Of a stretch of 64,000 nucleotides of DNA, positions 34,437 through 56,883 are shown piece by piece. The notes under the pieces were generated by a model. The model made no database searches and was not told the origin of the DNA. It was given only the letters and a program-made list of their open reading frames with translations. The first letter of the stretch is position 1, and each line of letters starts with the position of its first letter. Made by a program: the position numbers and the translations under genes. The stretch is from an uncultured Planctomycetia bacterium (GTDB taxonomy: Bacteria > Omnitrophota > Gorgyraeia > VGKH01 > JBHPFN01), in contig CAYOSQ010000007.1 of assembly GCA_964406665.1 (NCBI GenBank), positions 11,364 to 75,363 on the forward strand, written 5' to 3'.

Positions 34437-35009
34437 TCAAATAGTATCAGTTTTCTTAATTTGACTTAATGCGCATGGATTTGTACACCCCGGGTTAAAG
34501 CAATGCAGATCAATGTCAATGTTTTCACTCAATATTTTGATGTAATTAAACTTAGGGGGCACGTTATCTTTTTGCTCAAATGGACCCAGTTTTGTCTCGG
34601 TGTAAAGAACATAATCCGTTAAGGGAATCCAAAGGTGATATTTCCCGGCAGGATTCATATAAACAAAATTTTCTTGAGGGGTAAGTAAAGTTTTTTTGAG
34701 GAGATCCCCATTATCATCAAACATGAGGGCAAGCATTTCTCCTTCAATCATTTGCAGAAATTCATCTTTCTCAATATGTTTGTGTGGTTTTCTACATTTT
34801 CTATCTTTATATTCTAAGATTACCATCGCGTGTAATAATTTATCACAACTCTGATGCATGCAAAATCTTATATTCGCATTATTACCATTGCGAGAAATGA
34901 GTTTCATTTTCTCAATATTTTTCCGATGAAACACAGCAGGCTCACTATCTACAAAATAAGTGATTGATTTCGCCTTTATTTCTTTGAAATTATCAATTTT
35001 TTCATTCAT
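34437..35009 (-). CDS. Cupin-fold protein (possibly WbuC-like) with a Cys-rich tail
   Basis: Small beta-rich ORF with HxH-type residues (IRFCMHQS...HAMVI...PHKH) and C-terminal HCFNPGCTNPC. The family call is weak. Confidence 0.3.
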   Translation of the reverse strand: MNEKIDNFKEIKAKSITYFVDSEPAVFHRKNIEKMKLISRNGNNANIRFCMHQSCDKLLHAMVILEYKDRKCRKPHKHIEKDEFLQMIEGEMLALMFDDNGDLLKKTLLTPQENFVYMNPAGKYHLWIPLTDYVLYTETKLGPFEQKDNVPPKFNYIKILSENIDIDLHCFNPGCTNPCALSQIKKTDTI

Positions 35010-35073
35010 TTTTTAGAATATAAATATTTTTTTATAAATTTTTCAAAAATAGACAGTTTTGACTCCATTTTCT

Positions 35074-35106
35074 AGCGTTTAGTTTGTTCAAAACAATTTA
35101 AACGCT
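35074..35106. other. Imperfect 33-nt hairpin (AGCGTTTAGTTTGTT-caaa-ACAATTTAAACGCT) followed by ATTTTTGG
   Basis: Seen in sequence; 2 mismatches in a 15-bp stem. It lies between the GT87 stop and the cupin start. Possible operator or terminator-like element. Confidence 0.3.
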
Positions 35107-35179
35107 ATTTTTGGATTATACAACACTCACCACATGCTGTCAATGACAATTTAAGGGTATGATATTATGATTTAAGCGC

Positions 35180-36595
35180 TTAGGTAGGTAGTTTTAATGA
35201 TTGTTTCATTCGAATGGATTCGTAAAGATTCTTTCTTAACATAAGTAAAAGCCCAATAAACAATGCTAAGCCAGCTATTACATATTTGTGAACAAGAAGA
35301 GTTCCTCCTCCGGGTAATATTTTTACAAAGACGCTATCAGTAATCGCAGCAATTGTAAAGCCAGATAAGCAAATTAACGCTCCTAAAATGTTCTCTTCTT
35401 TCTTGCGCTGCAGAATCTCCTTTAAAACATAAGCAAAACCAGGTATAAACCAAATGGTATTCATTACCCAGGTTCTAACCCCTGATAAAACTATAACAAC
35501 TAATACAATCTGCCAGAATAGGAACTCTTGGGCATTGGACCATTCAAACCTAGCCTCGAAACTTTTAAATAAATTAAGAAAAACAACAATAATAAATGTA
35601 GCTAAAATTAAAAAGGATAAAAAAGTATCTTTATGGTCAGCAAATTTAGTTCGATTGAACATAATATATAGCCTTCTACCTAATTTAGTCCCTTTTATAG
35701 CTTTTACAAGCGTAGCATTATGAGAAAACCTTAAAGTTGAAGAACTATAATAAACTCCGTCTTTTACGGTCTTTCCAGCCGGTGTATTAGTGTACTTTAA
35801 ATATAAAGGAACAATCATCATAGGCAACATCATATTCATAGTCCCTTCTTCTTGAAACTGAGATATTCTCGGAAGATGCTTTGAAAAATAGTCGAGATTT
35901 AAAGTTCTACAAGAGAAAAATGAAACTATCACAAGTATGCCTATGCCAATAGCATATCCAGAAAGAACCCTCCATTTTCTCCTCAACATTAAAAAAGGAA
36001 CTAAAAATAAACAATAGGGTTTGAAAAATGTTGCCAGCGAGATTAATCCTCCGGAAAGATACTCTCCCTTATTCTGCTTAAGCATAAACATCATAGCTAG
36101 CATTATCAACAATAAGTTTATGGCATCAATTTGTCCTCTTTCAATTTCCGCCAGAAAAGGAAAAAATAAACAAATAAAGATACCGCAACTCAAAAGTACT
36201 TCAGCGGACAATTCTAACTTTATTATGTTACAAGCGATAATCAACGAAGAAATAACAGATAGAATAAGTATCGATATCCAAACCCACTTAGCAACTTTGT
36301 AAGGAAGCAAGGCTAATGGTCTTGTTAAAAAAGCAACAAGTGGAGTATAGGTAAATCTGCTGTGTTTATAAATTGCTACTCCATCCCAAATAGGTGGATC
36401 TCTGCGGATATGGTTTTTGTAAGGAGATAATCCGCTATTCATTGACTCAGCAGCCGTATAAGAAGCTGAGAAATCCATCTGCAGGCTTTCATTGCCAAAC
36501 TCAACAACATAGCTTATAAAGCGCACAGAAACACAAATGAAAATAATAGATAAAATAATTCTTATAGCTAGTTTACGAGATATTTTTCTTTGCAT
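35180..36595 (-). CDS. GT87/DUF2029-family integral-membrane (GT-C) glycosyltransferase
   Basis: MDFSASYTAA...SPYKNH...FTYTPLVAFLTRPLALLPYKVAKWVW matches the DUF2029 N-terminal signature (DF..Y...G..PY....FtYPP..a.l..PlalLp). Polytopic. Confidence 0.65.
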   Translation of the reverse strand: MQRKISRKLAIRIILSIIFICVSVRFISYVVEFGNESLQMDFSASYTAAESMNSGLSPYKNHIRRDPPIWDGVAIYKHSRFTYTPLVAFLTRPLALLPYKVAKWVWISILILSVISSLIIACNIIKLELSAEVLLSCGIFICLFFPFLAEIERGQIDAINLLLIMLAMMFMLKQNKGEYLSGGLISLATFFKPYCLFLVPFLMLRRKWRVLSGYAIGIGILVIVSFFSCRTLNLDYFSKHLPRISQFQEEGTMNMMLPMMIVPLYLKYTNTPAGKTVKDGVYYSSSTLRFSHNATLVKAIKGTKLGRRLYIMFNRTKFADHKDTFLSFLILATFIIVVFLNLFKSFEARFEWSNAQEFLFWQIVLVVIVLSGVRTWVMNTIWFIPGFAYVLKEILQRKKEENILGALICLSGFTIAAITDSVFVKILPGGGTLLVHKYVIAGLALFIGLLLMLRKNLYESIRMKQSLKLPT

Positions 36596-36708: not shown

Positions 36709-37476
36709 GTGATGATTTATTTTATTTTACCGATTTATAACGAGGCAAGAAATCTTAGAGAGCTAATTAATGAAATCAGGCAGCTTCTGCTTGGGCAAGA
36801 ATGTAAGATCGTAGCCGTAAATGATGGAAGCACTGATTCTTCCCTTGATGTGTTAAACGAATTAGGCGATAAAGACTTATTGATAGAAAGCCAAAGAATA
36901 AATATGAACATCGGGGCTGTTTTTTCTGCAGGCATCTTACGCATACTTCAAGAGTCAACAAACCCTAATGATATTGTTATCATAATGGAAAGTGATCAAA
37001 CTAGCTCTCTTGATGAGATAAATGACCTTCTACATGAAATTAATAAAAACAACAAAGATGTGGTTGTCGCTTCAAGGTACAAAAAAGGTGGTGGCTATGC
37101 TCATTTTCCTATTTTGAGAAATCTGTTTAGCCATTGTGCAAACAAACTATTAAGCAGCATCTTTCCCATAAATGACGTAAAGGATTATACTATCTTTTTC
37201 CGTGCATACAGAATAAGCGCTCTTAAGAAAGCTGTTAATTATTTCGGAAAATTTGGATTAATTCAGTCCCGGGGATTTGCCGCCAATGCAGAGCTACTTA
37301 TCAAACTGTCTTTTTTTACTAACCAAATTACAGAAGTCCCTTTTGTTTATGATTACTCTAAGAAAAAAGGTAGAAGTAAAATAAGGATACTAAGCACCAT
37401 CAATGAAACTATAATGCTCATCGGATATCTGAAAGAAATATACCGCAAACTGGAAAAATTCAGAGACATTAAATAA
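36709..37476 (+). CDS. Dpm1-like GT2 polyprenyl-phosphate sugar synthase
   Basis: IYFILPIYNEARNLRELINEIRQ ... VAVNDGSTDSS... ...SDQTSSLDEI... is collinear with Dpm1/Ppm1 type. AAGGAGG SD at 36694-36700. The track start is a GTG; an ATG follows at 36712. Confidence 0.8.
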   Translation: MMIYFILPIYNEARNLRELINEIRQLLLGQECKIVAVNDGSTDSSLDVLNELGDKDLLIESQRINMNIGAVFSAGILRILQESTNPNDIVIIMESDQTSSLDEINDLLHEINKNNKDVVVASRYKKGGGYAHFPILRNLFSHCANKLLSSIFPINDVKDYTIFFRAYRISALKKAVNYFGKFGLIQSRGFAANAELLIKLSFFTNQITEVPFVYDYSKKKGRSKIRILSTINETIMLIGYLKEIYRKLEKFRDIK

Positions 37477-37477
37477 G

Positions 37478-37512: not shown

Positions 37513-38922
37513 CTATTTTCTCAAAAAAACTTCGAGGGCACGATTGGCGAAAGTCTTGAAAGACTCAGGGATAAACTGCCGTATTGCTGTCAAATAAACA
37601 AAACAGCTATCAAAAAAAAGCACAAAAAGCGCTTTAGGGAAGCTAGTTTTTCTTAATACTTTAAATCTAAAAGTAATCTTTTCCCAATAAATTATTGCAG
37701 AAGAAATCTGTGGATACTTAAGCAACGAAGAAAACTGATGAGAATACGGCAAAATTTTACTATCCAGCCATTGATTATCTATGCATAGTTTATACAAGGC
37801 TGTGCCAGGATAGGGCTGGAAAATAGAAACCTGTAAAAAATTTGGCCCTACCTCCCTGTTTAAATCAATTGTCTCCTTTATCTCAGCTGTAGTCTCATAT
37901 GGCAGACCGACAATATTATAAGAATATGTCGGTAATCCTACATCGTGGCAGGTTTTAAATGCATTTTTTATCTGCTTATTAGAAACGTTCCTATTTAAAA
38001 CCTCTTTTCTGATTTTCTCAGAGCCACTCTCTATTCCTATGCAAACATTGGTACATCCGCTTCCCTTCAAATATTCACAAAGCTTAGGCGTAACCATTTC
38101 TGTTCTTGTGCTACATGAGTAAGTAAGATTAAAATCCTTGGGCAATTGCTGGCTGAACTCTTTAACCCAATTAATCGGAATAGCAAAAAGATCATCATGA
38201 AAAAACAACCTCTTGATTCCATACTTTTCTTTAAGCTCTTTAATTTCCTTAATTACATTTTTAACTGAACGCTTACGTATTAATTTACCTTTATCCTCAT
38301 ACAACTTGTGAAGATAAGAATTAATACAATAAGAACAATCATATGGGCAACCTCGCGAAGACATAATGTCCGCACCGCCGTTCCTCGATTTTATGTAACG
38401 CTCAATCTGAAAAATCTCTCTATCAGGAAATGGAATTGAATCAAGATCTGCAATAGGTGCATCTGCATCGTTGCGAATTATCTTCCCATTATCTTTTAAC
38501 CACAAGCCCTTTATATCAACAATCTGTTTTTTAGACTCAAGCCTATTACACAGCTCCAGCAAAGGCTTCTCCCCTTCTCCGATACAAACAATATCAACTG
38601 ACTTCTTAGCGATTACGCTTTCTGGCGCAACAGTTGGATGAACTCCACCAAAGATTATTTTTACCTCATTACCGAATTTATGCTTGATTTTCTCAGCAAT
38701 TTTTATTGAACGGTTAAATTCCCCCGTCCGCACTGAAAAAGCAACTATTTGAGGCTGAAACTTATCGATCTCCCTAATGGCAGTCTGAGAATTTCCTCCC
38801 CAGGTATAATCAACCAAGGCAGTTTTATGACCAGAATTCTTAATATATGCAGAAAGATATGCGATACCTAAAGAAATATTTTCCTGCCGCATAAAATTAG
38901 GATAAACAAATAATACCTTCAT
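37513..38922 (-). CDS. B12-binding radical SAM enzyme (class B rSAM)
   Basis: MKVLFVYPNF...LGIAYLSAYIKNSGHKTALVD (cobalamin-binding Rossmann), then SSRGCPYDCSYC (CxxxCxxC). Confidence 0.8.
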   Translation of the reverse strand: MKVLFVYPNFMRQENISLGIAYLSAYIKNSGHKTALVDYTWGGNSQTAIREIDKFQPQIVAFSVRTGEFNRSIKIAEKIKHKFGNEVKIIFGGVHPTVAPESVIAKKSVDIVCIGEGEKPLLELCNRLESKKQIVDIKGLWLKDNGKIIRNDADAPIADLDSIPFPDREIFQIERYIKSRNGGADIMSSRGCPYDCSYCINSYLHKLYEDKGKLIRKRSVKNVIKEIKELKEKYGIKRLFFHDDLFAIPINWVKEFSQQLPKDFNLTYSCSTRTEMVTPKLCEYLKGSGCTNVCIGIESGSEKIRKEVLNRNVSNKQIKNAFKTCHDVGLPTYSYNIVGLPYETTAEIKETIDLNREVGPNFLQVSIFQPYPGTALYKLCIDNQWLDSKILPYSHQFSSLLKYPQISSAIIYWEKITFRFKVLRKTSFPKALFVLFFDSCFVYLTAIRQFIPESFKTFANRALEVFLRK

Positions 38923-39054
38923 AATTTCAAAAGTACCTTTCAATGAAATAGTTACAGGTATATTGTATAGCTCTGTAAGAAAAATATCAAGCTAAGCTAC
39001 GATTATCTATTTTTTTGTTGCCAGCTTAACATTTATAGTATATGATTTGATAAT

Positions 39055-41142
39055 ATGATTATATCGCTTGCAGTATTTTTAGTTATTATCATCGGCCTTG
39101 GTTCTATAGCAAGAATTGCTGGCTGGTCCAAAGAAGATGCCCTTGAGAAATTTTTTATTACTTCTGGAATTGGATTACTTGCGATTCCTGTTGTAGGAGT
39201 CATATTCAACCTTCTAGGCATACCGATTGATTTCAAAAATTTTATCTATCTTGCTTTAACAATCCTTATCTTCTCTGTAATAATAGAGTTAATCCGCAAA
39301 TCTTCCAGATCCAGCATAAAAAATCTTATAAAAGAATTAATCTCCCTTCCCAATATTGCGCTATTAGTTATTTTTGGTATAGCCCTTTATATGTATTTAA
39401 AAGGAAGTTTTTCATATGAATGGTTTGAAGATTATGATCCCTGGCTTTATGCAGCCTCTACGAAATTCATTGCGCTTGAGAAAACTTTTAATTCTTCATT
39501 CTGGTCTCGAGTTTCCCAGCCGTATCCTCAGGGATTCCAAATCATCTTGGCAATTTTGCATCAGACCAATTCCAGCTTAAGCTGGACAATGAAATTTTTT
39601 AACGCAATAATTGTCTCCCTAAGCTACCCTATGTTTTATTATCTTTCTAAAAAACTAGTTCCGGGAAAATGGCCTTCCATAATCGGCACTGCTGCCCTTT
39701 TGTCTATGCCTGCTTGGTTAACTCATTTTATTTTCCCTTTCAGCCTTAGCATGACATCAATCCCGATTTTCTTTTATGCGCTTATTAAAAGTGAAGAAAA
39801 CAATAAATGGTTTACAATTGCACTCATTTCATTTATATCCATATGGTTCATTCACTTTTATTCAAGCTTTGTTATAACAATTATGTTATTTCTTTACTGG
39901 TTAAATAAATCGTTCTGTGAAAATAAATTTAATAAATCTATAATCTGGTTAACAATTTCAGGGATGGTTGTAAGTCTCTCAATTTTCTGGCTGCCTTCTC
40001 TTTATAAATTTAAGGATGAAATTCTCATAGATCAAAAAGTTCCTGCAGGATTACACGTATTTATCAATCCCATTAAATCGCTTATTGAAACCGGATACTG
40101 GATTAATGTTTTATCATTTATTTTATTTTTTATAATTATCATCTCAACACAAAAATTCTGGAGACGCGCCCTGAGCAGAATTACTTCTAAGTTTAATTTT
40201 AAATATACTAAAGCAACAATCTTTACAATTGCAATATCTTTAACAATGGTTGTGTTGTTGTGGCCGAAAAAGTTCATGCGCGTGCTTGGTTCAGGATCCA
40301 TGCCATATACCCTTGAACATTTTCTTTCTCTGAATACCGAACGCAACCTTATCCAAAATCCGTTTGGAATAGGAGCTGTTTCAATGGCTCTAGCTGCAGT
40401 TGGCTTTATTTACTGTATTGTCATAATAGCCAAGCTATTCTCGAAAGAAAAACAATTCACTGCACTAATATTTGTTTGGAGTATCTTTACTTTTTTAGGC
40501 GTAAGCAGTGCGAGATTTTCCTTAAACCTTATGCCTTTTAGAATGTGGTCATTCTTCGCGTTTTCTGTAGCTCTGCTTGTAGCTTTATGTTATAATCTAA
40601 TAACCAACAAAATAAAACAGCCGATACTGAAAATTTGCCTAACTGTTCTTTTGATAATTGGGTTTTCCTTCACATGGTTTCCTATAAAATACAAGCTAAA
40701 CAGCAATAGATGGAAAGAAGGTTGGCTAACCACCATTCAAGCTATTAATCTATATGTTTGGGTAGGTGAAAACTTACCCAAAAATTCCAAGGTGTACTCA
40801 CTGGGAACAAACCAATGTGTCCCCATAGTCTTTGATATGATTTCTTACCCTTGGGATTACGAAGTAAAAAATTATATAAATAAAGATATTGAGAATTCGC
40901 CATCGGATAATTATGAATTTCTTAAAGCCAAAGGCTATGAATACGTTATCGTTGATGTTTCTAGCTCCTTGTATCATTTTAACTACACTCATTACGAGCT
41001 TCCTGAAGGTGTAAAAAACGTACTCTTTATCAAAAATCTAAAATTGCTAAACTTCAAAAAAGCAATTATGCGACAGATGGATAATAAATTTGAACTCATC
41101 AAAGAATTCGGCGATACCGGAGCAATTTTTAAAATACTATAA
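39055..41142 (+). CDS. Polytopic GT-C membrane protein; degenerate STT3/PglB-family paralogue
   Basis: EL1-like EDYDPWLYAASTKF...W...YPQG resembles STT3 efDPYfnYraTrF...W...YPlG. The C-terminal NLPKNSKVYS-LGTNQ-CVPI sits at the ntPedAKVmS-WWDYG-yqI position. NYEFLKAKGYEYVIVD resembles AYkIMRsLDVDYVLV. The DxD and WWDYG acidic residues are missing. Confidence 0.45.
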   Translation: MIISLAVFLVIIIGLGSIARIAGWSKEDALEKFFITSGIGLLAIPVVGVIFNLLGIPIDFKNFIYLALTILIFSVIIELIRKSSRSSIKNLIKELISLPNIALLVIFGIALYMYLKGSFSYEWFEDYDPWLYAASTKFIALEKTFNSSFWSRVSQPYPQGFQIILAILHQTNSSLSWTMKFFNAIIVSLSYPMFYYLSKKLVPGKWPSIIGTAALLSMPAWLTHFIFPFSLSMTSIPIFFYALIKSEENNKWFTIALISFISIWFIHFYSSFVITIMLFLYWLNKSFCENKFNKSIIWLTISGMVVSLSIFWLPSLYKFKDEILIDQKVPAGLHVFINPIKSLIETGYWINVLSFILFFIIIISTQKFWRRALSRITSKFNFKYTKATIFTIAISLTMVVLLWPKKFMRVLGSGSMPYTLEHFLSLNTERNLIQNPFGIGAVSMALAAVGFIYCIVIIAKLFSKEKQFTALIFVWSIFTFLGVSSARFSLNLMPFRMWSFFAFSVALLVALCYNLITNKIKQPILKICLTVLLIIGFSFTWFPIKYKLNSNRWKEGWLTTIQAINLYVWVGENLPKNSKVYSLGTNQCVPIVFDMISYPWDYEVKNYINKDIENSPSDNYEFLKAKGYEYVIVDVSSSLYHFNYTHYELPEGVKNVLFIKNLKLLNFKKAIMRQMDNKFELIKEFGDTGAIFKIL

Positions 41143-41144
41143 AA

Positions 41145-42008
41145 ATGCCCAAAGTTAGCATTATTCTCCCAGCATTCAACGAAGAAAAATCAATAGGACC
41201 GCTTATCCGTCAAATCCAAACAATTATTAAAGAGGATTATGAAATTTTAGTTGTTGATGACGGCTCTACTGATAAAACTTTCTCGCAGGCACAAAAAGCA
41301 GGTGCTCGAGTACTTAAACACCCTTACCAACTAGGTAATGGCGCTGCAGTAAAAACCGGCATGAGAAATGCCGTTGGGGACATTTTCCTTCTTTTGGATG
41401 CAGATGGCCAGCACGATCCCAAATACATACCAGAAATTCTAAGCTTGATGGAAGAATACGACATGGTTGTAACTGCTCGCACAAAATGGACTGATGCTCC
41501 CTTGCATCGTAAATTTGCAAATGTAATTTATAATGCCCTTGCTTCTTATTTATCAAAGACTAAGATTCTTGATCTAACGTCTGGATTCAGGGCTATAAAA
41601 GCAAAAATTGCTAGAAATTTTATTTATTTACTGCCGAATACATTTTCTTATCCCTCCACTCTTACTATGGCTATATGCAAAACCGGCCATAGCTTGACTT
41701 ATGTTCCGGCAAAGCTAAAACCGAGAATCGGAAAAAGTAAAATAAACCTAATTTCCGACGGCGTTAGATTTATATTAATAATAATGAAGATTGCAACTCT
41801 CTTTAATCCCATGAGAATATTCTTCCCAACTAGCCTTGCTATTTCTGCCATGGGAATAGGCCATGCTGCCTATAAAATATTCGTACGCCACGAGCAATAT
41901 ACCGGCCTTTCTTTATTGTTTATTACTACTGGTATTATGGTATTTCTCTTAGGGCTTATTGCAGAACAAATTACTCAGCTTCGCCTTGAAAGAAGCGAAG
42001 GTAACTAA
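41145..42008 (+). CDS. GtrB/Dpm1-like GT2 polyprenyl-phosphate glycosyltransferase with C-terminal TM helices
   Basis: VSIILPAFNEEKSIGPLIRQIQ...ILVVDDGSTDKT...LLLDADGQHDP..., then two C-terminal hydrophobic helices. Confidence 0.8.
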   Translation: MPKVSIILPAFNEEKSIGPLIRQIQTIIKEDYEILVVDDGSTDKTFSQAQKAGARVLKHPYQLGNGAAVKTGMRNAVGDIFLLLDADGQHDPKYIPEILSLMEEYDMVVTARTKWTDAPLHRKFANVIYNALASYLSKTKILDLTSGFRAIKAKIARNFIYLLPNTFSYPSTLTMAICKTGHSLTYVPAKLKPRIGKSKINLISDGVRFILIIMKIATLFNPMRIFFPTSLAISAMGIGHAAYKIFVRHEQYTGLSLLFITTGIMVFLLGLIAEQITQLRLERSEGN

Positions 42009-42030
42009 ACTATCCTCATTCACCCTTAAC

Positions 42031-47957: not shown

Positions 47958-49313
47958 ATGCAAAATAATAAGAGAATTTATCATAAAATGTCAAAAAGAT
48001 CTAATTACTATCTCAAAGAAATTGAAAATTATATAAATTTCCTGATCCCACCCCATTCTTCTGTATTAATGTTGGGTTGTGGATGCGGTGAAATCTTAGG
48101 CTCGCTTAAACCCTCTCGAGGATTAGGCATTGACTGCGAAATCAAAAACATAGACGCCGCAAGAAAAAGCTTCCCCTCTCTTGAATTTCAAGCTGGCATA
48201 AATGAGCTAAAAAATATTCATGAGAAATTTGATTATATCCTAATCTATGACATCCCTAATGATATAGATTCGCTTAAGAAAACTTTAAAAATACTAGAAA
48301 GTTGCTCCCTGTCAGATTCTCGAATTATAATAATCCATGATAAGAAAAAAACCTGCCCTGAATGTAATGCTAAGAATAAAGTTTCTACTCTTAAGTGGAG
48401 TGCTATTAAAGGTGCTATTTCACAAGAATCAATCGAACCCATTAAAGAAGCCCATAGAACTCTCATTTGCAAATATATTCCACTTATTTCAGTGCTTTTC
48501 AATAAAATAATCATAAACCTACCGATTTTCTGGAGATTTTCTTTAATTAATATTCTAGTAGCCAAACCTACTAAAACCAGAAAACCCCAAAAAGATGTAT
48601 CCTGCTCTGTCATAATTCCCTGCCGTAACGAAAAAGGTAATATTGAACCTGCAATTAAAAGAACTCCCAAGATGGGTAGTCATACAGAATTTATCTTTAT
48701 AGAAGGACATTCTCAAGACGGTACGCTTGAAGAATGCTACAGAGTGCAAAAGGCTTATCCAGAAAAAGATATAAAAGTATTCGTACAAGACAACGTAGGC
48801 AAGCGAGATGCAGTATACAAGGGCTTCGCTAATGCGAAAGGCGATATTTATATAATACTTGATGCAGATTTAACAGTTTTACCAGAAGACCTGTCTAAAT
48901 TTTTCAACGCTATCGCCTCAGGAAAAGGAGAATTCATAAATGGCTCAAGGTTAGTTTTAAAAATGGAAAAAGAAGCAATGCGAAAACTAAATTGGCTGGC
49001 TAATAAATTTTTTGGCTTTATGTTCTCCTATTTGCTCTCACAAAAACTCACTGATACATTATGTGGAACAAAAGTTTTGTGGAAAGATGATTTTCAAAGA
49101 ATAGTCGCTGGCAGATGCTATTTTGGTAACTTTGACCCCTTTGGTGATTTTGACCTAATACTCGGATCTGCAAAATTAAATCTAAAATTTGTTGAAATCC
49201 CCATCAGGTATCAAGCTAGAAAATATGGCTCTACTCAGATATCGAGATTTAGGCATGGGCTACTGCTTCTTAAAATGACAATATTTGCCATGAGAAAAAT
49301 AAAATTTATTTAG
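47958..49313 (+). CDS. Fusion: class I SAM methyltransferase (N-terminal) plus GT2 polyprenyl-phosphate glycosyltransferase (C-terminal)
   Basis: VLMLGCGCGEILGSL (MT motif I), then CSVIIPCRNEKGNIEPAIKR ... ILDADLT (GT2 DxD). The real start may be the Met at 47988, given the promoter position. Confidence 0.7.
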   Translation: MQNNKRIYHKMSKRSNYYLKEIENYINFLIPPHSSVLMLGCGCGEILGSLKPSRGLGIDCEIKNIDAARKSFPSLEFQAGINELKNIHEKFDYILIYDIPNDIDSLKKTLKILESCSLSDSRIIIIHDKKKTCPECNAKNKVSTLKWSAIKGAISQESIEPIKEAHRTLICKYIPLISVLFNKIIINLPIFWRFSLINILVAKPTKTRKPQKDVSCSVIIPCRNEKGNIEPAIKRTPKMGSHTEFIFIEGHSQDGTLEECYRVQKAYPEKDIKVFVQDNVGKRDAVYKGFANAKGDIYIILDADLTVLPEDLSKFFNAIASGKGEFINGSRLVLKMEKEAMRKLNWLANKFFGFMFSYLLSQKLTDTLCGTKVLWKDDFQRIVAGRCYFGNFDPFGDFDLILGSAKLNLKFVEIPIRYQARKYGSTQISRFRHGLLLLKMTIFAMRKIKFI

Positions 49314-49323: not shown

Positions 49324-50814
49324 TTGGGAAAAGGTAAAAAAGCAAAATTAGAATTAGAGAAAAGAAATGTAATCATTGTTATTGCAATAATCTTTGCAGT
49401 TGGGCTATTTTACTTCTTTACTTTAAGAGAAGGCCACAACTGGGGTGGAGATTTTGCCATGTATATCCATCATGCTAAGAATATTGCAGAGGGCTTAAAC
49501 TATAGGGAAACCGGATATATATTTAACCCTCTAAACCCGATTGCCCCTAAAACCTTTCCTCCTGTTTTCCCTCTTTTGCTGTCGCCGATTTATTTAATAT
49601 TCGGCTTAAATTTAGCCGTAATGAAAGTCGAGGTAGTTTTATTCTTCCTAGCATCAGTTTTTTTAATGTTTCAAATATTCAAGGATGATCTACCGTTTAA
49701 ATATATTATCCCTCTTATTATTCTAATAAGCCTTCATCCATTCTTCTGGTCTTTCAGGAATAACGTCATTTCTGATTTTCCGTTTTTATTTTTTGTATAT
49801 TTAAGCATCTTTTTAATCCACAGAAAGCGACCCAAGGATAAATCCAAGAAATTTCAATTCCTAAATGCTGTCTTAACTGGATTTGCTGTATACTTAGCCT
49901 GCGGAACAAGAAGTATAGGCATTGTATTAATTCCCACTTTGATTTTAAGCGAGATTTCTCGATATAGAAAAATAACTAAGTTTTCAGTAATTTCCACACT
50001 CACCACAATTCTATTTTTGCTATTACAAACAATCTTCTTTTACAGCGCACGGGGAAATCTGGAGTTCTTCTTCTTAAGCAAAAAAGTTGTATTATTTAAT
50101 ATTTCGATGTATTCAAAGATAGCTTTCTTGTTCTGGAATAACGGATATATCCAACCTTTGAGCTTAGGACTATTAATCTTAATGTGCATTTTAGCTGCAG
50201 CCTCTTACATAACCAGAACCAGAAAAAAAATCACTGCATTGGAAATATTTCCTTTCTTTTACTCAATTCCAATTATTGTTTGGCCATACTTTGATGGCCC
50301 AAGATTTATTTTCCCGCTTATTCCTCTCTTCTTATTCTATGCTTTTACTGGACTTTACAGAATTATCTTAAATCGCAAGAAAAAAATCGAGAAAATTGCA
50401 TTTATCACAGTTTTCTCTTTATGTTTTTTAACTTATTTTCTTCAATACACAAAGATGGATTTCGGCAAAATACATGAAGGAATAGCTAAAAAGGAGAGCG
50501 TCGAACTCTTTAACTACATCAAAAAATCTTCTGAAAAAGACGATGTTTTCATCTTCGTAAAGCCGCGAGTATTATCTTTTTATACCGAAAGAAAAACCGC
50601 AATTTATCCTATAGTAAAAAATGATACTGAATTCTGGAAATATCTTTTGCAAATAAAAGCTAGTTATTTAATTGTTAACAAAAACTTTCCTAATGATTTG
50701 AGAATACTTTTACCATTTGTTTTAAAATTCAAAAGCTATTTAAGCAACGTATTTTCTAATGATGACTTTATTCTACTCAAAATCCAGTGGAACTTATTAC
50801 CCTACAATAAGTAA
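49324..50814 (+). CDS. PMT_2/ArnT-like GT-C membrane glycosyltransferase
   Basis: GGDFAMYIHHAKNIAEG...TFPPVFPLLLSPIYLIFGLNLAVMK is the PMT_2-type N-terminal loop. About 11-12 TM helices. Confidence 0.6.
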   Translation: MGKGKKAKLELEKRNVIIVIAIIFAVGLFYFFTLREGHNWGGDFAMYIHHAKNIAEGLNYRETGYIFNPLNPIAPKTFPPVFPLLLSPIYLIFGLNLAVMKVEVVLFFLASVFLMFQIFKDDLPFKYIIPLIILISLHPFFWSFRNNVISDFPFLFFVYLSIFLIHRKRPKDKSKKFQFLNAVLTGFAVYLACGTRSIGIVLIPTLILSEISRYRKITKFSVISTLTTILFLLLQTIFFYSARGNLEFFFLSKKVVLFNISMYSKIAFLFWNNGYIQPLSLGLLILMCILAAASYITRTRKKITALEIFPFFYSIPIIVWPYFDGPRFIFPLIPLFLFYAFTGLYRIILNRKKKIEKIAFITVFSLCFLTYFLQYTKMDFGKIHEGIAKKESVELFNYIKKSSEKDDVFIFVKPRVLSFYTERKTAIYPIVKNDTEFWKYLLQIKASYLIVNKNFPNDLRILLPFVLKFKSYLSNVFSNDDFILLKIQWNLLPYNK

Positions 50815-50939: not shown

Positions 50940-53111
50940 ATGAAAATAATCATTTTTTCACTTATAGGTCTGTTTTTAGTTTTTCTTCTGCTAATATCTC
51001 TTCTTTTAAGCATAGATCGCCTTAGTTCGAGAAAATCAACAAAATCATCAATACCAAAAAAGATAACAAGAAAAACATCAAAAGCTAAAAAGATATTTTT
51101 CAACAGCTTGTTTATCTTGTTGCTGTCTTTTATTTCAATTGCGCTTGTTTATACATCTTACAATATTAATTCAATGGTTTCCAAAAAGAGTTCCACTTCA
51201 GACAAAAAAAAGACTGTTCTAGATAAAAGTATTCAAGGTGGGGTTTTAGAAAATAGCTCTGGTAGAGACTATTCTATCGATACAAAAACCGCATCTTCAA
51301 AAATATCAAAAGAAACAAGCAGTAAAGAAAGTGGCTCTTTAACCACATCTGAACAAAAATACTCACGAGGCCAAAGCGAAACTGCCGAATCAACTTTTTT
51401 AATGGATATCCCCTCAAGCACTCAAGAATCATCCACTTTGACAACTTTTTCTGACACTTTTACACCAACTACTTCAGAATTTGATTCTTCAACTTTTTTG
51501 AACATTATGTCTTCATCCTTTTCGAAAAATAAAGATGAAAAAGAATCAAAGCCTATTGCTTACTTAAAAGGTGCAAAGCCTGGTGAAATATTTATCACTG
51601 CTTTTTACGATCAAATGAAAAATGGTAAATTCACAAAATCTGAAAAGATAGGTTTTTCTCAATCTGAAAATAACCTTTGCAACAATATAAATATAGCCAT
51701 AAACCTGCCTAGCTTAAGAAAATCCCAACTAACACAACTTCCCTTTACTATCAATGGTTCAATTGTACCCCAAACTTCTAAAGATTTACCCTTAGAATTA
51801 AATAAAAAGGGAATTTTAAAACCTTTAAAAGATTTTAAAAAAAGTGAGTTTGATTATACGATAAAAAACTGCATAGGATCACCCAGTATCGTCCTAGAGA
51901 GAAAAAAGACAGAATGGTTAACGAAAGAGATAAAAAACATACCTGAGGAACTAATTGGGTTTTTAAAAGCAGTAAAAGAAAAAAATAGTTTTGTAAAACT
52001 TGCCACTGTAGCATCTATATTGAATTCCTATTTCGGATATCAGGCTTCTCTTGAACCAATTGAACTACCTAAAAACAATACCTGGGGAAATCTTTTAACA
52101 GAAAAAATAGCTCTTAATGAAAAGCTGCTTTGCGACTGCGATGTATTATCAACCTATTCTTACATTTTTCTTCAATATTTGGATTTCAACCCAATCTTAC
52201 TTATTGGTTATTTTAACAGCCCTAAACATAGCGAATCTCTAATGGCTGAGGAACTACATGCAACTCTATTGATTGAATCAGATGGTAAATGGATTATATT
52301 TGAGCCAACACTGTTCGTTCATAATTTTACTTTTGAAATTATCAAAAAGAAATTAAAAATTATCGGACCAGTTTTTAAAGGCATTCTTTCTACTGATTTA
52401 ACCGAAAGAGGTATTGATCCAGAATCGTCCATGTCTTATATAATTGAGAATTCTGAAATCGGCTATTTCAGAATTCCTGAAAGCATATCAGAAGACCTGG
52501 AAGAAATTAATCATCAATCTCAAGCAGAAATTAAGCTCGCTAAATTGATTATAGAAATATTGTCTTTTAAGGATAATAAGTCTAAAAATTATAATGATAG
52601 CGGAGACACCACTTTTCCTATAATGTTATTAGTTCAATCTTCTATTGTAATGTATTTTTTGAGCATTATTTTAATTAAGCTATTCGCCGCACTCAAAGGT
52701 TTTAGAAGAATTGTATTCCCTATAGATAAACCATTCTTTTACATCTATCATTTGTTGCTTTTTGCTGTTTTTGTGAGCATATTAAGCCGTTCTCTTGCAG
52801 GCGAAGCTTCAGCCTATTGGAGCAAATCAACAACCGCTAACTTCTTAGGAATCACTTTTTGCCTATCTGCTGGTATAAGTAGTGCTATATTAATGATCGT
52901 CTTTCTATTTTCTGATAAAACTGAAACTATGTACAGCAATAAACTTATCCAATCCATCAATGACAGATCGTACCTTATCGTTGGATTACTATTCACTATT
53001 TCTGCCTTACTCTACTCTCCAAGCAATATTGTCTTTATAAGTTCGCTTTTAATAATAGTTCTATTTATTGTAGAAATAAAAAAAATATGCGATAATCTAA
53101 AGATAGTTTGA
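50940..53111 (+). CDS. Membrane-anchored transglutaminase-like protein with an S/T-rich linker and C-terminal TM helices
   Basis: N-terminal TM, then a ~120-aa Ser/Thr-rich low-complexity region. Transglutaminase-like core: Cys in LLCDCDVLSTYSY, His in ELHATLLIE, acid in GKWIIFEPT. Four or more C-terminal TM helices follow. Confidence 0.55.
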   Translation: MKIIIFSLIGLFLVFLLLISLLLSIDRLSSRKSTKSSIPKKITRKTSKAKKIFFNSLFILLLSFISIALVYTSYNINSMVSKKSSTSDKKKTVLDKSIQGGVLENSSGRDYSIDTKTASSKISKETSSKESGSLTTSEQKYSRGQSETAESTFLMDIPSSTQESSTLTTFSDTFTPTTSEFDSSTFLNIMSSSFSKNKDEKESKPIAYLKGAKPGEIFITAFYDQMKNGKFTKSEKIGFSQSENNLCNNINIAINLPSLRKSQLTQLPFTINGSIVPQTSKDLPLELNKKGILKPLKDFKKSEFDYTIKNCIGSPSIVLERKKTEWLTKEIKNIPEELIGFLKAVKEKNSFVKLATVASILNSYFGYQASLEPIELPKNNTWGNLLTEKIALNEKLLCDCDVLSTYSYIFLQYLDFNPILLIGYFNSPKHSESLMAEELHATLLIESDGKWIIFEPTLFVHNFTFEIIKKKLKIIGPVFKGILSTDLTERGIDPESSMSYIIENSEIGYFRIPESISEDLEEINHQSQAEIKLAKLIIEILSFKDNKSKNYNDSGDTTFPIMLLVQSSIVMYFLSIILIKLFAALKGFRRIVFPIDKPFFYIYHLLLFAVFVSILSRSLAGEASAYWSKSTTANFLGITFCLSAGISSAILMIVFLFSDKTETMYSNKLIQSINDRSYLIVGLLFTISALLYSPSNIVFISSLLIIVLFIVEIKKICDNLKIV

Positions 53112-53123: not shown

Positions 53124-54410
53124 ATGAAAATGAAAAACTTAATTCACATACTTTTTATTTCTATTGCTACCATATCTTTTTTAACTATGCAGCCTTGTCC
53201 TTTTTTAATAGCTTTAGGAGATACGAAACCTGCCATAGAGGAAGAAATTCCCGATTACTATATGCCCTACTTGGAGTTTTTAGAAGAAGTTTACAATAAA
53301 ATGGACCAATATTACTATAAGCCTATTTCAAAAGATGTTTACGATACTTATGTGGAAAAGTACAAAAGATCTGTTTTGAGTAAGATCGGAAAACATGATA
53401 AAAAAATTAATAGAATTGCTCATATTGGAGCAGGTCTTATGGTTAACCATTTAAAGGATAGAAAAGAAGATAACTTTACTAATTTTATTCCACCAAAAGA
53501 GGCTAAAGAATATGCAAAGAAAGTATACGGCTATGAAAACGGCATAGGAATAACTGGAACTGTAACCGAAAAAGGATATAAGATTACTCATGTACAAATA
53601 AGGTCAGATGCCTATAAAAAAGGCATATCTTCAGAAGATATTGTTCTTAAAATTAATGATTTTGATATCTTATCGCTAAGCGAAGAAGATTTAAATAATT
53701 ATCTTTTCCCCCCACTAGAAACAATAATTAAACTGGAAATTCTTTCATACAAAGAAGAAAAAACTAAGATATATAAAGTTGTCTGCGAAGAATATTTTAA
53801 AGAAACAATTACCAATATTTCTACCAACACACCTAGAGTTTTTTGCTTAAAAATTCATACATTCAACAGAAAAACTTCCGATGATTTTAAGGAATACATT
53901 AAAGATTTTACAAAAAAAGATATCGATTTACTTATCATTGATCTAACAGATAATCCTGGAGGCCCCCCTTTGGCAGTACATGAGCTTTCTGGAATATTCT
54001 TCCCTCCCGAAACCAAGCTGGTTTACTACAAAAAAAGGGAGGCTGAAAAGTTTGGCTTAATATCGCCGGAATCAAATATCCACTATGATGGAAAGGTTGC
54101 AATTTTAGTAAATAAAATGAGTGGGAGCGCTTCTGAAATTCTTGCCGGTACAATGAAAGCCTACAAAAGAGCTATTGTCGTGGGAAAAGAATCAACGGCA
54201 GGAAGAGCATTTCTTAAAAGCACCTTCAATTTTGAAGATGGCTCTATGCTCGCCATGGTAACCGGTTTTGCCTATCTTGCCGATGGAACTAAATTCGGCA
54301 TGGAAGGTGTCTCTCCAAATGTAAAAGTACCAATGGATGCAGATAACATGTTATTATATATTATTGATAAATACAAAGAAAACGCCTTAGCCAAACCAAG
54401 CCTTCAATAA
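53124..54410 (+). CDS. S41-family C-terminal processing (tail-specific) peptidase
   Basis: A PDZ-like segment, then DLTDNPGGPPLAVHELSGIFF and KMSGSASEILAGTMKAYKRAIVVGKESTAGRAF (the Ser/Lys dyad region). Confidence 0.85.
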   Translation: MKMKNLIHILFISIATISFLTMQPCPFLIALGDTKPAIEEEIPDYYMPYLEFLEEVYNKMDQYYYKPISKDVYDTYVEKYKRSVLSKIGKHDKKINRIAHIGAGLMVNHLKDRKEDNFTNFIPPKEAKEYAKKVYGYENGIGITGTVTEKGYKITHVQIRSDAYKKGISSEDIVLKINDFDILSLSEEDLNNYLFPPLETIIKLEILSYKEEKTKIYKVVCEEYFKETITNISTNTPRVFCLKIHTFNRKTSDDFKEYIKDFTKKDIDLLIIDLTDNPGGPPLAVHELSGIFFPPETKLVYYKKREAEKFGLISPESNIHYDGKVAILVNKMSGSASEILAGTMKAYKRAIVVGKESTAGRAFLKSTFNFEDGSMLAMVTGFAYLADGTKFGMEGVSPNVKVPMDADNMLLYIIDKYKENALAKPSLQ

Positions 54411-54414
54411 AATT

Positions 54415-56883
54415 ATGTCTTGTTTTAAAAAATTGAACAATAAATTCCTGACTTATCTGCTGATTTCAATAACTGTAATCACCATTGGGCTACATTTTAG
54501 ACTTTATCCTATCACCATCAATTTAAACAGACAAAATCTTTCTGCTTCGAGGATTGCTCTCTTCATAAATATAAAGAAAACTCTAGCCAGAAAAATTAAT
54601 GCTGCTTTCCCAAACCTTCCACAAGAAAACAAAAATGTTTTGATAAATAAAGGATTTGAAAGTTTTACAAAAAAGGATCCTGAAAAATTAAAAGCCTTGA
54701 TAGATGAATTCAAATCAAAAAATGAGAATTCATTATATAGATACTTTCTTCTTGGCTCTGATTCCTATTATTTCTATTATCTAACAAAAGAGATAGTTTC
54801 CCACGGAGCCATATCCAAACAAATAAAAAACGGAAGTTACTTTGATGTTCTTATGAGTGCACCTGGCGGCCATTGGAGGAAAATTGAAGCTCACCCCTAT
54901 TTCGGTTTTTCCATCTACAAACTATTCACTGTTTTTTCTAAAGATTTTTCTCTTCTCTGGGCTTTATCTATTGTTCCTTTAATACTTTTTACTGTCTCGG
55001 CCTTAATTTTTATTTTAATTTGTTTAAATCTAAAGATTGATAAAATTAACATTCTTTTCAGCTCTTTATTCTTTTGTCTTTCTCCAATCTTCATTCAACG
55101 CAGTTCTTTTGGTTGGTACGATAGTGACCCATACAATATTCTATTCTTGTGCCTTGCGCTTTTTATAATTCTTAAGTTAGTAAAAAATGAAACTCATATC
55201 TTCTGGTCCCTTTCCTTGGGTTTTGTTACAGGACTATATTCATTATTTTGGCAGGGCTGGGTTTTGCTACCTGCTCTGTCTTTTTCATCTATGTTTTTTG
55301 TTTTAATCATAAAGGTTATCGAAAAACAAAAATTTACAATATTATTAAAAAAAATCGGGCTATTTTCTGCAAGTTTTCTTATTTTTGCAATAATTATACT
55401 TTCTCCTAAAGGCTTCGCAAATTCTGCTTCCGATATTTCAAGCATCATCTTTGGTTTTTTTCAGCTAAATTCAAATTTATGGCCTGATATCTTCTTAACC
55501 GTCGGAGAACTAAAGTCGCCCAATGCTTTAAAGATTATTCACACATTAGGTGGCTATGTGTTTATCGGAGTTGCTGTTTTGGGTTTTATCTTATTATGCT
55601 TTGGAAGAATCAAAAATTCAGATAAAGGACAGAGTATTGTAATAGTAGTTTCGACAATTTTATGTTTATTATTAACCAGAAACGCTGAACGCTTTGTCCT
55701 CTTTTTATTAGTTCCTATTTCAATTTGTTTTGCGCTAGGAATTAATGAGATCTGGAGGGCTGTAAATACGCAGTACTCAAAAATATCCAAGTTGAGAAAA
55801 AATCATTGTAACTGTGCAGCGACTTTTACATTATCCCTACTTTTGATTTCTCCCTTTATTTACGGCCATGCAACATCTCTTTCTCAAGTCCCTCTTTTTA
55901 ACATCGTATGGAAAGATTCACTTGAAAAAATAAAGAACAAGACTGATAAATCAGCAGTAGTCAATTCCTGGTGGCCTCCTGGACACTTCATTAAAGCTAT
56001 TGCTGAAAGAAGAGTAACTTTTGACGGTGCAACAATCAACACTCCTCAGGCATACTGGATGGCTAATTTCTTTTTATCAAATAGTGAAGAAGAAGCTTTA
56101 GGCATACTAAGAATGTTAAATACCAGCAGCAATGAAGCAACTGAATTTATGATTGATAAAAGAATTCCTCTTCAGAAAGCAATACCTTTATTAAAAGAAA
56201 TAATTGTAAAAAGTAAGCAATCTGCCAAGGATACCCTGAAAAACTATTTAGATGATAAAGATATAGAGCGTATTTTAATATTAACTCATTCAAGCCCCCC
56301 TCCTTCCTATTGCCTTATTTATAATGAAATGGTGGAGAACGCTCTTGGTCTTCGGTTCGTCAAAAATTGGAATTTCAATAAAGCATTTAATATTAAGAAG
56401 GAGCGGTATGCCGCTTTAAAAAAGGGAAAGTTCTTCTGGAGGGGAACCAAAGACTATATAGGAGAGGCTTGGTCTGTTTCTGGTGGTCCAACATACATCG
56501 GAGAAGAATCTTACGAAATCTCCACTAATAATAATTCAATTCGATTTGCTAACGGAGTAATCCTAGATAAAGAATTAATGATTGCTAAAATCGATAGGCT
56601 TGAAGACAAAATATCCGGGGTTCCCCATTCCTTGCTTTATGTAAAAAATAATAAACTAATAGAGAAAAAACTTGAAAATCCGACTATTAAGCTTTCTGTC
56701 TTAATTATTCCTCATTCTAATAACAGTCAAAGTTCAATTGTTGCTCCCGCTGAAGTTCTAAAATCTATTCTTTTTAGGCTTTATTATCTTGATGGGCTGG
56801 GATTAAAAAGGTTTGAAAAGGTTATTCAAGAAGAAAACCCTTTGCTTAAAACAAGGATTTTTGTCTTTAAAATTATCTGGTAA
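54415..56883 (+). CDS. STT3/PglB/AglB-family oligosaccharyltransferase homologue with WWPPG in place of WWDYG
   Basis: EL1 GSDSYYFYYLTKEIVSHGAISKQIKNGSYFDVLMSAPGG resembles STT3 fDPYFNYRtTRFlaeeGfykfhNWFDDrAWYPlG. RSSFGWYDSDPYNILF resembles RSvAGsYDNEgIAIF. The C-terminal soluble domain NKTDKSAVVNSWWPPGHFIKAIAERRVTFDGATIN...NFFLSNSEEEALGILRML resembles NTpEdAkVmSWWDYGYQI..mANRTtLVDNNTWNN...SSnEeaAYkIMR.L. About 13 TM helices. Confidence 0.6.
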   Translation: MSCFKKLNNKFLTYLLISITVITIGLHFRLYPITINLNRQNLSASRIALFINIKKTLARKINAAFPNLPQENKNVLINKGFESFTKKDPEKLKALIDEFKSKNENSLYRYFLLGSDSYYFYYLTKEIVSHGAISKQIKNGSYFDVLMSAPGGHWRKIEAHPYFGFSIYKLFTVFSKDFSLLWALSIVPLILFTVSALIFILICLNLKIDKINILFSSLFFCLSPIFIQRSSFGWYDSDPYNILFLCLALFIILKLVKNETHIFWSLSLGFVTGLYSLFWQGWVLLPALSFSSMFFVLIIKVIEKQKFTILLKKIGLFSASFLIFAIIILSPKGFANSASDISSIIFGFFQLNSNLWPDIFLTVGELKSPNALKIIHTLGGYVFIGVAVLGFILLCFGRIKNSDKGQSIVIVVSTILCLLLTRNAERFVLFLLVPISICFALGINEIWRAVNTQYSKISKLRKNHCNCAATFTLSLLLISPFIYGHATSLSQVPLFNIVWKDSLEKIKNKTDKSAVVNSWWPPGHFIKAIAERRVTFDGATINTPQAYWMANFFLSNSEEEALGILRMLNTSSNEATEFMIDKRIPLQKAIPLLKEIIVKSKQSAKDTLKNYLDDKDIERILILTHSSPPPSYCLIYNEMVENALGLRFVKNWNFNKAFNIKKERYAALKKGKFFWRGTKDYIGEAWSVSGGPTYIGEESYEISTNNNSIRFANGVILDKELMIAKIDRLEDKISGVPHSLLYVKNNKLIEKKLENPTIKLSVLIIPHSNNSQSSIVAPAEVLKSILFRLYYLDGLGLKRFEKVIQEENPLLKTRIFVFKIIW

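Follow-up and report, generated by a model that had tools for sequence, protein, structure and literature searches.

To our knowledge, the bacterial oligosaccharyltransferases (OSTs) of the STT3 type that have been characterised come from Campylobacterota and Desulfobacterota, and all of them carry a WWDXG motif. The archaeal family member AglB, which keeps a WWDYG motif and uses the N-X-S/T sequon, glycosylates type IV pilins and archaellins with glycans that are linked to dolichyl phosphate (Dol-P) and initiated by AglJ. The region analysed here, positions 34437–56883 (~22 kb) of a 64-kb stretch of DNA from an uncultured Omnitrophota bacterium (the whole stretch is called the window below), encodes an STT3-like protein together with a dense set of other glycosyltransferases. 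Omnitrophota are ultra-small, possibly predatory or host-dependent bacteria, and a literature search returned no paper that links them with STT3 or with oligosaccharyltransferase. The main point of the analysis is a phylum-wide clade of STT3-like proteins that lacks the Asp of WWDXG and that gene order connects with proteases and a pseudopilus system. We read the region as a periplasmic-face glycosylation island in which four Gtr-like lipid-sugar cassettes accompany a sequon-independent STT3-type transferase tied to that pseudopilus system, and we put the probability of this reading at roughly one half.

Families were assigned with Pfam and NCBIfam and their cut-offs, family profiles were compared by hhalign, and AlphaFold2 (AF2) models were searched with Foldseek; genes are named here by their first position. 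The 822-aa product of gene 54415 (54415–56883, plus strand) matches Pfam STT3 (PF02516) at 4e-20, with 73.1 bits against a cut-off of 24.5. Its AF2 model (pLDDT 89) has PglB (6gxc) as the best Foldseek match (E 1.4e-20, TM 0.69), followed by AglB and STT3, and it also matches the isolated C-terminal domain 3aag. The likeness to PglB, AglB and STT3 (GT66) covers both the Pfam family and the fold, including the C-terminal periplasmic domain. In PglB, catalysis and the binding of metal and pyrophosphate rely on residues D56, R147, D154/D156, E319 and R375, and the WWD motif forms a hydrogen bond with the Ser/Thr at +2 of the sequon (PMC7226087). The conserved residues of 54415 map to these positions and to WWD as described there. 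In an alignment of 83 clade members (the window protein and 82 relatives), D116, R229, D238, E365 and R426 were conserved in 82–83 sequences and D236 in 74, so that 54415 keeps the first-loop Asp, the R...DxD motif, the Glu of the fifth loop, which lies in TVGEL, and the phosphate-binding Arg.

The clade differs from PglB, AglB and STT3 in having WW(P/S/C)PG in place of WWDXG. W519, W520, P522 and G523 were invariant or nearly so among the 83 members, and the intervening position 521 was Pro in 60, Ser in 18, Cys in 5 and Asp in none; since sequences were retrieved with a pattern containing WW[PSD]PG, this absence of Asp is partly an ascertainment artefact. In a search by homology only, 21 of 23 members had no Asp at this position. 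WWDFG was found only in P0029 and P0030, two distant outgroup proteins of ~990 aa. The WWPPG of 54415 (residues 519–523) pairs with the WWDYG of human STT3A in a phmmer alignment (SWWPPGH vs SWWDYGY). Downstream of the WW motif, we did not recognise by alignment a conserved MXXI (bacterial) or DK/DxxK (archaeal and eukaryotic) motif, the element that touches the +2 residue; a clade-specific LRMLN motif is conserved there instead. With WWDXG replaced by WW(P/S/C)PG, the clade has no acceptor at this position for a hydrogen bond from the +2 Ser/Thr. Judged by its motifs, the clade appears to keep the chemistry of the family and to have lost the sequon reader. The nearest WWDFG-keeping STT3 relatives (~990 aa, 25% identity) are represented in locus L088 (10001–12982) by a gene within a GT4/epimerase/deacetylase/formyltransferase glycan cluster without T2SS (type II secretion system) genes; this cluster also holds DUF2304 and a pair of PMT and B12-radical-SAM genes.

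The Pfam match and the structural match to PglB would fit canonical N-glycosylation of the Campylobacter pgl type, in which an oligosaccharide linked to a lipid pyrophosphate is transferred en bloc to the Asn of (D/E-X)-N-X-S/T. Two further observations point the same way, namely a PglK-like ABC transporter among the matches of gene 32130 and the presence of DegT and PglD-like genes near the STT3 homologue of locus L006. The Asp of WWD is replaced in 83 of 83 clade members, however, the MXXI or DK motif was not recognised, and no PglC/WecA-type initiating transferase was found in the 64 kb. In addition, 54415 has as neighbours family 2 glycosyltransferases (GT2s) of the monophosphate-donor (Dpm1/AglJ) type, unlike the lipid-pyrophosphate-oligosaccharide pathway of pgl systems. 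We regard pgl-type transfer as very improbable here. Lacking WWDXG, 54415 should not be filed as a canonical N-OST, and the canonical N-glycosylation implied by an earlier, sequence-only reading of the window is not borne out for a protein that, with all 82 relatives, lacks this Asp.

A genome scan recovered the clade from at least 168 species-level genomes, mostly under Omnitrophota titles with a sizeable minority of other labels such as 'uncultured Planctomycetales'. STT3-like homologues are annotated Candidatus Omnitrophota, and the window protein is encoded identically on several metagenome contigs. The pattern search described above yielded 80 species-level loci, whose STT3 proteins have a median pairwise identity of 35%; we compared these loci by tblastn with the window proteins and by unbiased clustering of all open reading frames (ORFs) within 7 kb of STT3. 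A T2SS-like operon lay within 10 kb of STT3 in 32 of the 36 loci with 6 kb or more of flanking sequence on each side of the gene. It encodes a tetratricopeptide repeat (TPR) protein, a GspM-like protein, a PilM-PilN fusion (GspL-like), GspK, minor pseudopilins, GspG and GspF. As a rule, operon and STT3 are transcribed towards each other, with the end of the TPR gene at most ~0.5 kb from the STT3 stop, and the TPR-protein family is the most constant neighbour of all (60 of 80 loci). We did not find a secretin or GspC in the window or in the loci inspected; in L005–L007, the downstream end of the operon has a GspE with MshEN and PilZ domains beside an ATP-synt_ab (V/A-type ATPase-like) gene. A preprint on Omnitrophota describes T2SS-like loci adjoining giant genes (West-Roberts et al., bioRxiv 10.1101/2023.11.21.568195); a term search of its text returned no link to STT3 or to pseudopilin glycosylation.

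Upstream of STT3, the adjoining gene reads in the same direction (gap −38 to +269 nucleotides) and encodes a Trypsin_2 peptidase in 41–43 and an S41 peptidase in 12 of the 65 informative loci. This position is thus taken by a serine protease gene of type S1 or S41 in 55 of 65 loci. The two types never occur together in one locus, and two unrelated serine-protease families hold the same slot. Beyond the protease the flank is highly variable, its largest recurrent families being a response regulator (10 loci) and a split transketolase (8–9 loci); this variability argues that the T2SS linkage is not just general synteny. The part that is conserved across the phylum is the STT3-like gene, the serine protease and the T2SS-like operon.

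Such conservation might also arise if the STT3-like protein glycosylated the envelope in general and its gene had simply inherited its place beside the T2SS-like and protease genes, without functional coupling. This would agree with the convergent orientation in most loci, with the 4 of 36 fully flanked loci that have no T2SS genes nearby, with the recurrent synteny of the split transketolase, a housekeeping-type gene, and with the ~48 kb of glycan genes (3161–50814) tolerated in the window between STT3 and the orthologue of the Trypsin_2 protease. It agrees less well with an adjacency that is kept at 35% median STT3 identity while the other flank is highly variable, or with the exchange of two serine-protease families in one operonic slot. 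In L007, L051 and L077, moreover, STT3 and the T2SS genes share a strand, and STT3 precedes GspK and S41: the order in L007 and L051 is PilMN, M, TPR, [DUF2304, GT2], STT3, GT2, GspK, S41, and of L077 only the STT3, GspK, S41 portion was seen. Genes also shuttle between the T2SS operon and the STT3 flank. In 20 loci a gene of the Peptidase_MA_2 family is part of the T2SS operon, between GspG and GspF; in 8 S41-clade loci it is found upstream, across STT3 from that operon. About 8 loci have a cassette of WecB, Dpm1-like GT2 and PMT_2 genes at the distal end of the T2SS operon, immediately next to STT3. Inherited order without coupling seems to us rather unlikely.

In the window itself, STT3 is the last gene of a five-gene plus-strand operon, 47958-49324-50940-53124-54415, with intergenic gaps of 10, 125, 12 and 4 nucleotides. 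The gene directly upstream, 53124 (53124–54410, plus strand), encodes a 428-aa S41 C-terminal processing peptidase with a PDZ domain (Pfam Peptidase_S41 4e-34; TIGR00225 prc 6e-45). Convergent with STT3 across a spacer of 4 nucleotides lies gene 56888 (56888–57820, minus strand; Pfam TPR matches), which encodes a secreted TPR protein and closes the T2SS-like operon. Between the stop codons of STT3 and of this operon (56883–56888) there is no room for separate terminators. The operon continues on the minus strand (57830–63684) and past the window end with genes for a GspM-like protein, a GspL-like PilM-PilN fusion, GspK, three pseudopilins including GspG, and GspF, assigned from T2SSM (weak), PilM_2/PilN, T2SSK_1st, T2SSG (7.5e-31), T2SSF (1e-57) and N_methyl. 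The window set accordingly comprises F, G, K, an L-like PilM-PilN fusion, an M-like and a J-like component. The TPR neighbour has a disordered C-terminal tail with a short recurrent motif, K[IV]R[LI][KR]G (cluster 1, L008–L087), which reads GTGKVQIQG in the clade of the window.

A Trypsin_2 peptidase is also present in the window (1879–2664, plus strand; Pfam Trypsin_2 9e-25). With 39% identity (E 5e-68) to L068:9175-9939, it is orthologous to the protease found immediately ahead of STT3 in most other Omnitrophota, and it lies ~52 kb upstream of STT3 with the glycan genes in between. The spacing looks as if a glycan island had been inserted between two conserved partners.

As in archaeal pilin glycosylation by AglB, an STT3-family enzyme here stands beside a machine of the type IV filament class, and AglJ is the best match of two of the neighbouring GT2s (41145 and 47958). 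Unlike the archaeal case, the host is a diderm bacterium, the machine is a T2SS-type pseudopilus (GspG, GspK, GspL/M-like), the link comes from gene neighbourhood alone, and the GT2 matches fall far below the AglJ cut-off (126 vs 325 bits). The mature GspG-like pseudopilin contains no N-X-S/T, which is compatible with a non-sequon enzyme. We tentatively propose, at well below even odds, that the WW(P/S/C)PG clade is a new class of STT3-family protein glycosyltransferase that would use a code other than N-X-S/T and would form a unit with its operonic protease, possibly acting where proteolytic cleavage exposes or defines a site; its targets would be found among the pseudopilins, the TPR partner and the cargo of the T2SS-like system.

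Upstream of the STT3 operon and reaching into it, GT2 genes are paired with genes for GT-C membrane glycosyltransferases four times: 36709/35180 (divergent), 41145/39055 (with WecB), 43109/44135 and 47958/49324. Counting 54415, the region has five GT-C candidates with 10–14 hydrophobic segments each. GtrA/GtrB/GtrC, ArnC/ArnT and the GT136 pentofuranose systems (PMC11127046) are similarly built on a GT2 and a GT-C, here found as four pairs, one of them with the epimerase WecB. The Omnitrophota pairs differ in that no GtrA or MATE flippase lies beside them, in that their GT-Cs belong to other, partly unclassified families, and in the unusual tandem arrangement of four cassettes and STT3. By Pfam, no GtrA/MATE flippase was found among the ORFs at 34.4–56.9 kb, and the sole candidates in the window are a Wzx-GT2 fusion (3161–5644) and an ABC transporter (32130–33773). 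Together with the STT3/PglB-fold enzyme, the four GT2s, each beside a GT-C, bear out the sequence-only reading of a dense extracytoplasmic glycosylation toolkit of the polyprenyl-phosphate-sugar/GT-C kind, and all ORFs that it named are present at the coordinates it gave.

The cassettes are conserved far less widely than the STT3 linkage. The whole 22-kb set is colinear gene for gene in one other genome, GCA_042567325.1 (L005/L089), where identities are 61% for 39055, 50% for STT3 and 42% for 44135. GT87, 44135, 39055 and the B12 radical SAM gene are almost never found within 10 kb of STT3 in the 80 loci. We therefore reject conservation of the 22-kb module throughout the phylum, for which GCA_042567325.1 is the sole full colinear match; conservation of the module holds for this genome and fails within 10 kb of STT3 for most of the set. 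Because the full set lies near STT3 only there, the dense module is best described as a lineage-specific accretion.

The first pair consists of 35180 (35180–36595, minus strand), a 471-aa GT-C with 12 hydrophobic segments that belongs to GT87 as had been predicted (Pfam 1.4e-24, 87.6 bits vs 25), and the divergent gene 36709 (36709–37476, plus strand) for a soluble, Dpm1-like GT2 of 255 aa (Pfam GT2 4.5e-18). The best NCBIfam matches of 36709 were Dol-P-hexose transferase, PgfS, PpgS and ArnC, all below cut-off, and the subfamily labels of the GT2s in general rest on best matches of this kind. A B12-binding radical SAM protein of 476 aa, correctly recognised before, is encoded by the next gene, 37513 (37513–38943, minus strand; Pfam B12-binding 5e-19, Radical_SAM 2e-27). 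It is HpnJ-like (TIGR03471, 6e-55), with 187 bits under a cut-off of 578, and B12 radical SAM genes adjoin GT-C/GT2 genes in L006 and L088 as they do in the window.

Gene 39055 (39055–41142, plus strand) is the first of the 39055-41145-WecB operon and encodes a 695-aa protein without any Pfam or NCBIfam match. Its family aligned with the STT3 clade by hhalign (93.7%, E 1.9e-7), and the AF2 model (pLDDT 86) gave yeast and human STT3 (1e-9), DPY19 (8e-9) and AglB as top Foldseek matches. D128 in the first loop and R496 are invariant in the family, and there is no WWDXG motif. On the strength of the model, 39055 is predicted to be a remote GT-C of the STT3/DPY19 fold. It matches the DPY19 C-mannosyltransferases about as well as STT3 and differs from them in lacking a Pfam match. 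Two STT3-like proteins had been claimed for the region: 54415 stands, and the second is 39055, by hhalign (94%) and predicted fold.

The adjoining gene 41145 (41145–42008, plus strand) encodes a 287-aa GT2 (Pfam 1e-29) with two C-terminal hydrophobic segments, a candidate polyprenyl-phosphate sugar synthase of AglJ/PpgS-like type. AglJ matched at 1.4e-36 and PpgS at 1e-23, both below cut-off, and PgfS was among the best matches. The WecB-like UDP-GlcNAc 2-epimerase announced by the sequence-only reading follows (41959–43128, plus strand; Pfam Epimerase_2 2e-52; TIGR00236 wecB 2e-50, 172 bits vs 210). Translation probably begins further downstream than the listed TTG, as this lies within the gene before it.

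In the third pair, 43109 (43109–44116, minus strand) and 44135 (44135–45967, minus strand) share an operon. The 335-aa product of 43109 has a GT2 match in its N-terminal half only (Pfam 1.7e-24) and four hydrophobic segments beyond residue 250; from its sequence it is a generic GT2 whose C-terminal transmembrane bundle is compatible with a GtrB-like enzyme and not specific to one. The 610-aa product of 44135 is ArnT/PMT_2-like. It reached 25.1 bits against a PMT_2 cut-off of 26.1 (2.4e-5), 6 of 10 homologues matched PMT_2, and the family profile matched ArnT 5ezm (E 5e-5); D34-E35 is invariant in the family, and ArnT/PMT_2 enzymes have an acidic Asp-Glu motif in the first loop. Compared with the ArnT/PMT enzymes (GT39/GT83), the family shares the matches to ArnT and PMT_2 and differs by the score below gathering and by the absence of MIR or TPR domains. 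The C-terminal domain of 44135 is not a TPR domain. A TMTC-like TPR domain had been assigned to it, and we rejected this assignment and the analogy with TMTC because there is no TPR array: no TPR Pfam match (E<0.01) was found in 44135 or 9 homologues, and residues 533–590 gave non-significant matches to designed TPR proteins (E 0.5–8).

The fourth pair opens the STT3 operon. Gene 47958 (47958–49313, plus strand) encodes, as had been noted, a methyltransferase (Methyltransf_31 5e-5, N-terminal) fused to a GT2 (Pfam 2.8e-21); the best NCBIfam match of the GT2 half was AglJ (5.5e-26), far below the equivalog cut-off. Of four GT2s put forward as Dpm1/GtrB-like, all four have the GT2 domain, and the Dpm1/AglJ-like label applies to 36709, 41145 and 47958 only. 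Gene 49324 (49324–50814, plus strand) encodes a probable GT-C of 496 aa with 10 hydrophobic segments, matches to PMT_2 (6e-3, 17.1 bits) and LA_3751/2 (1.6e-9), and an hhalign match of 80% to the 44135 family. A PMT_2/ArnT-like nature, proposed for both 44135 and 49324, is supported by the family profile for the first and is weak for the second. Single-sequence phmmer searches of 44135, 49324 and 50940 against the PDB gave nothing significant. We did not detect ArnA/B/D-type domains or an ArnT NCBIfam match in the region, and ArnC (PRK10714) scored 39–68 bits against a cut-off of 529. With similarities to ArnC and ArnT so far below the cut-offs, this is not an ordinary Arn lipid-A pathway.

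Several genes had gone unmentioned in the sequence-only reading: a WbuC cupin (34437), a secreted protein (46095), three protease-type genes (46673, 50940 and 53124) and the T2SS-like operon. The secreted protein (46095–46649, plus strand; 184 aa) has an N-terminal signal-like hydrophobic segment, no family match and an orthologue in L005/L089. Gene 46673 (46673–47854, minus strand) encodes a 393-aa metalloprotease with TPR matches and Peptidase_MA_2 (Pfam 3e-18). The 723-aa membrane protein encoded by 50940 (50940–53111, plus strand) has a Ser/Thr-rich linker, followed by a transglutaminase-like Cys-His-Asp/Glu domain and C-terminal transmembrane segments. C400 and H440 are invariant in its family and residue 455 is acidic (Asp in the consensus, Glu in the window); a weak Transglut_core match was obtained for 4 of 19 members and a PEMT-like match for 5 of 19. 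We considered 50940 as a second STT3-like protein and rejected it as a transglutaminase-like membrane protein, not a GT-C. The family is a rare one: 1.84 billion proteins contain 49 representatives of it, and some members have a PEMT/ICMT-like C-terminal membrane domain. Its transglutaminase-like domain of ~255 aa is also found inside giant proteins of 2,100–7,500 aa.

The linker of 50940 invites comparison with the streptococcal GtrB/PgtC2 and Pgf systems, which O-glycosylate Ser/Thr-rich disordered regions and thereby protect them from proteolysis (PMC12041528). The Omnitrophota region likewise combines GT2 (PgfS is among the best matches of 36709 and 41145) with GT-C, has proteases co-encoded, and in the operon includes 50940, whose linker (residues 80–205) is 40% Ser+Thr. 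It differs in its diderm host, in being known from genes alone, and in the linkers of the orthologues, which are disordered with only 11–21% Ser+Thr; for this last reason a role of the linker as a conserved O-glycan acceptor is weakly supported.

Directly upstream of the region lies a large glycan cluster (445–34299), mostly on the minus strand, with an O-antigen/capsule-like part of ~31 kb. It encodes a GDP-mannose dehydratase, a Wzx/MATE-like flippase fused to GT2 (3161–5644, minus strand; 827 aa), GT4s, a GT9, a UDP-galactopyranose mutase, and FkbM-type and other methyltransferases, with a NeuB/NeuC-like/CMP-transferase set, five radical SAM proteins, a split transketolase and an MsbA/PglK/HepA-like ABC transporter (32130–33773) in addition. 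Beside the Wzx-GT2 fusion is an 822-aa protein with two GT4 (Glyco_trans_1_4) stretches (9551–12019). The nonulosonic-acid set (13723–19741, minus strand) comprises NeuB (3e-74), a NeuC-like UDP-GlcNAc 2-epimerase, a CMP-sugar cytidylyltransferase, an O-methyltransferase and a TIGR04372 glycosyltransferase, and sugar-tailoring genes are concentrated at 24847–32127 (minus strand), with four radical SAM proteins (two SPASM), the N and C subunits of the split transketolase, a SAM methyltransferase and a NAD epimerase. Between the ABC transporter and the WbuC cupin, a 170-aa protein (33787–34299, minus strand) matches a CudC-type transcriptional regulator (1.7e-17, below cut-off) and is kept in L089. 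The WbuC-family cupin itself (34437–35009, minus strand; 190 aa) matches TIGR04366 at 1.4e-21 (76.7 bits vs 42) and has an orthologue in the colinear L089.

This cluster bears on a further explanation, in which the acceptor of the GT2/GT-C cassettes, and perhaps of the STT3-like enzyme as well, is not a protein but a surface polysaccharide, lipopolysaccharide (LPS) or lipoglycan. Side chains would then be added after polymerisation, as in Gtr and Arn systems and mycobacterial lipoarabinomannan (LAM), to the glycan of the 3–34 kb cluster. Three-component systems of GT2, flippase and GT-C are common for periplasmic glycan decoration (PMC11127046). The cluster directly upstream and the WbuC cupin speak for this explanation, and GT87 and the ArnT-like families include glycolipid-modifying enzymes, with the 44135 profile matching ArnT 5ezm. 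Against this, the closest folds to 39055, STT3 and DPY19, modify proteins, and we know of no characterised STT3/PglB/AglB enzyme other than protein N-glycosyltransferases. STT3 is operonic with proteases and linked across the phylum to the T2SS-like operon, not to O-antigen genes, and the region has no ArnA/B/D genes and no equivalog-level Arn or Gtr match. We judge polysaccharide or LPS decoration a possible, though not a favoured, explanation.

Our preferred reading, the periplasmic-face island of Gtr-like cassettes and a sequon-independent STT3-type transferase, has two layers. In the lineage-specific layer (~34.4–50.8 kb), we infer that the cytoplasmic GT2s of the four cassettes load sugars onto polyprenyl phosphate to give polyprenyl-monophosphate sugars, with the WecB-like epimerase supplying UDP-ManNAc for one cassette. 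The fused methyltransferase and the B12 radical SAM protein may tailor these sugars. The lipid-sugars would be flipped across the membrane, and the adjacent GT-C (GT87, 39055, 44135 or 49324) would pass a single sugar to a periplasmic acceptor. The phylum-wide layer (46.7–56.9 kb and the T2SS-like operon) would be centred on the STT3/PglB-fold transferase, which may be active without using the N-X-S/T code and, together with the periplasmic serine protease of its operon, may act on a protein that belongs to the T2SS-like pseudopilus system or is its cargo.

A number of observations weigh against the island as so described. Both PMT_2-type assignments, 44135 and the weakly GT-C-like 49324, score under the Pfam gathering cut-off, and the scanned ORFs of the 64-kb window include no GtrA-type flippase or initiating phosphoglycosyltransferase. 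The absence of Asp from the clade owes something to the retrieval pattern, and a GspG-like pseudopilin free of N-X-S/T leaves the enzyme without a predicted acceptor site. Convergence in most loci means that STT3 and the T2SS operon are not co-transcribed there, and the recurrent split transketolase indicates some backbone synteny. Lying beside an O-antigen/capsule-like cluster, the cassettes could equally decorate that glycan.

If active, the 54415 clade would broaden the acceptor chemistry known for OSTs, would point to a glycosylated secretion or adhesion apparatus in Omnitrophota, and would supply glycoengineering with new enzymes. Several GT-C families that have yet to be characterised come in addition from the four tandem cassettes, among them that of 39055, with a predicted STT3/DPY19 fold and no Pfam model. 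Should the protein-glycosylating unit prove true, it would be a bacterial counterpart of archaeal pilin glycosylation by AglB, and it may show how the acceptor specificity of OSTs has evolved.

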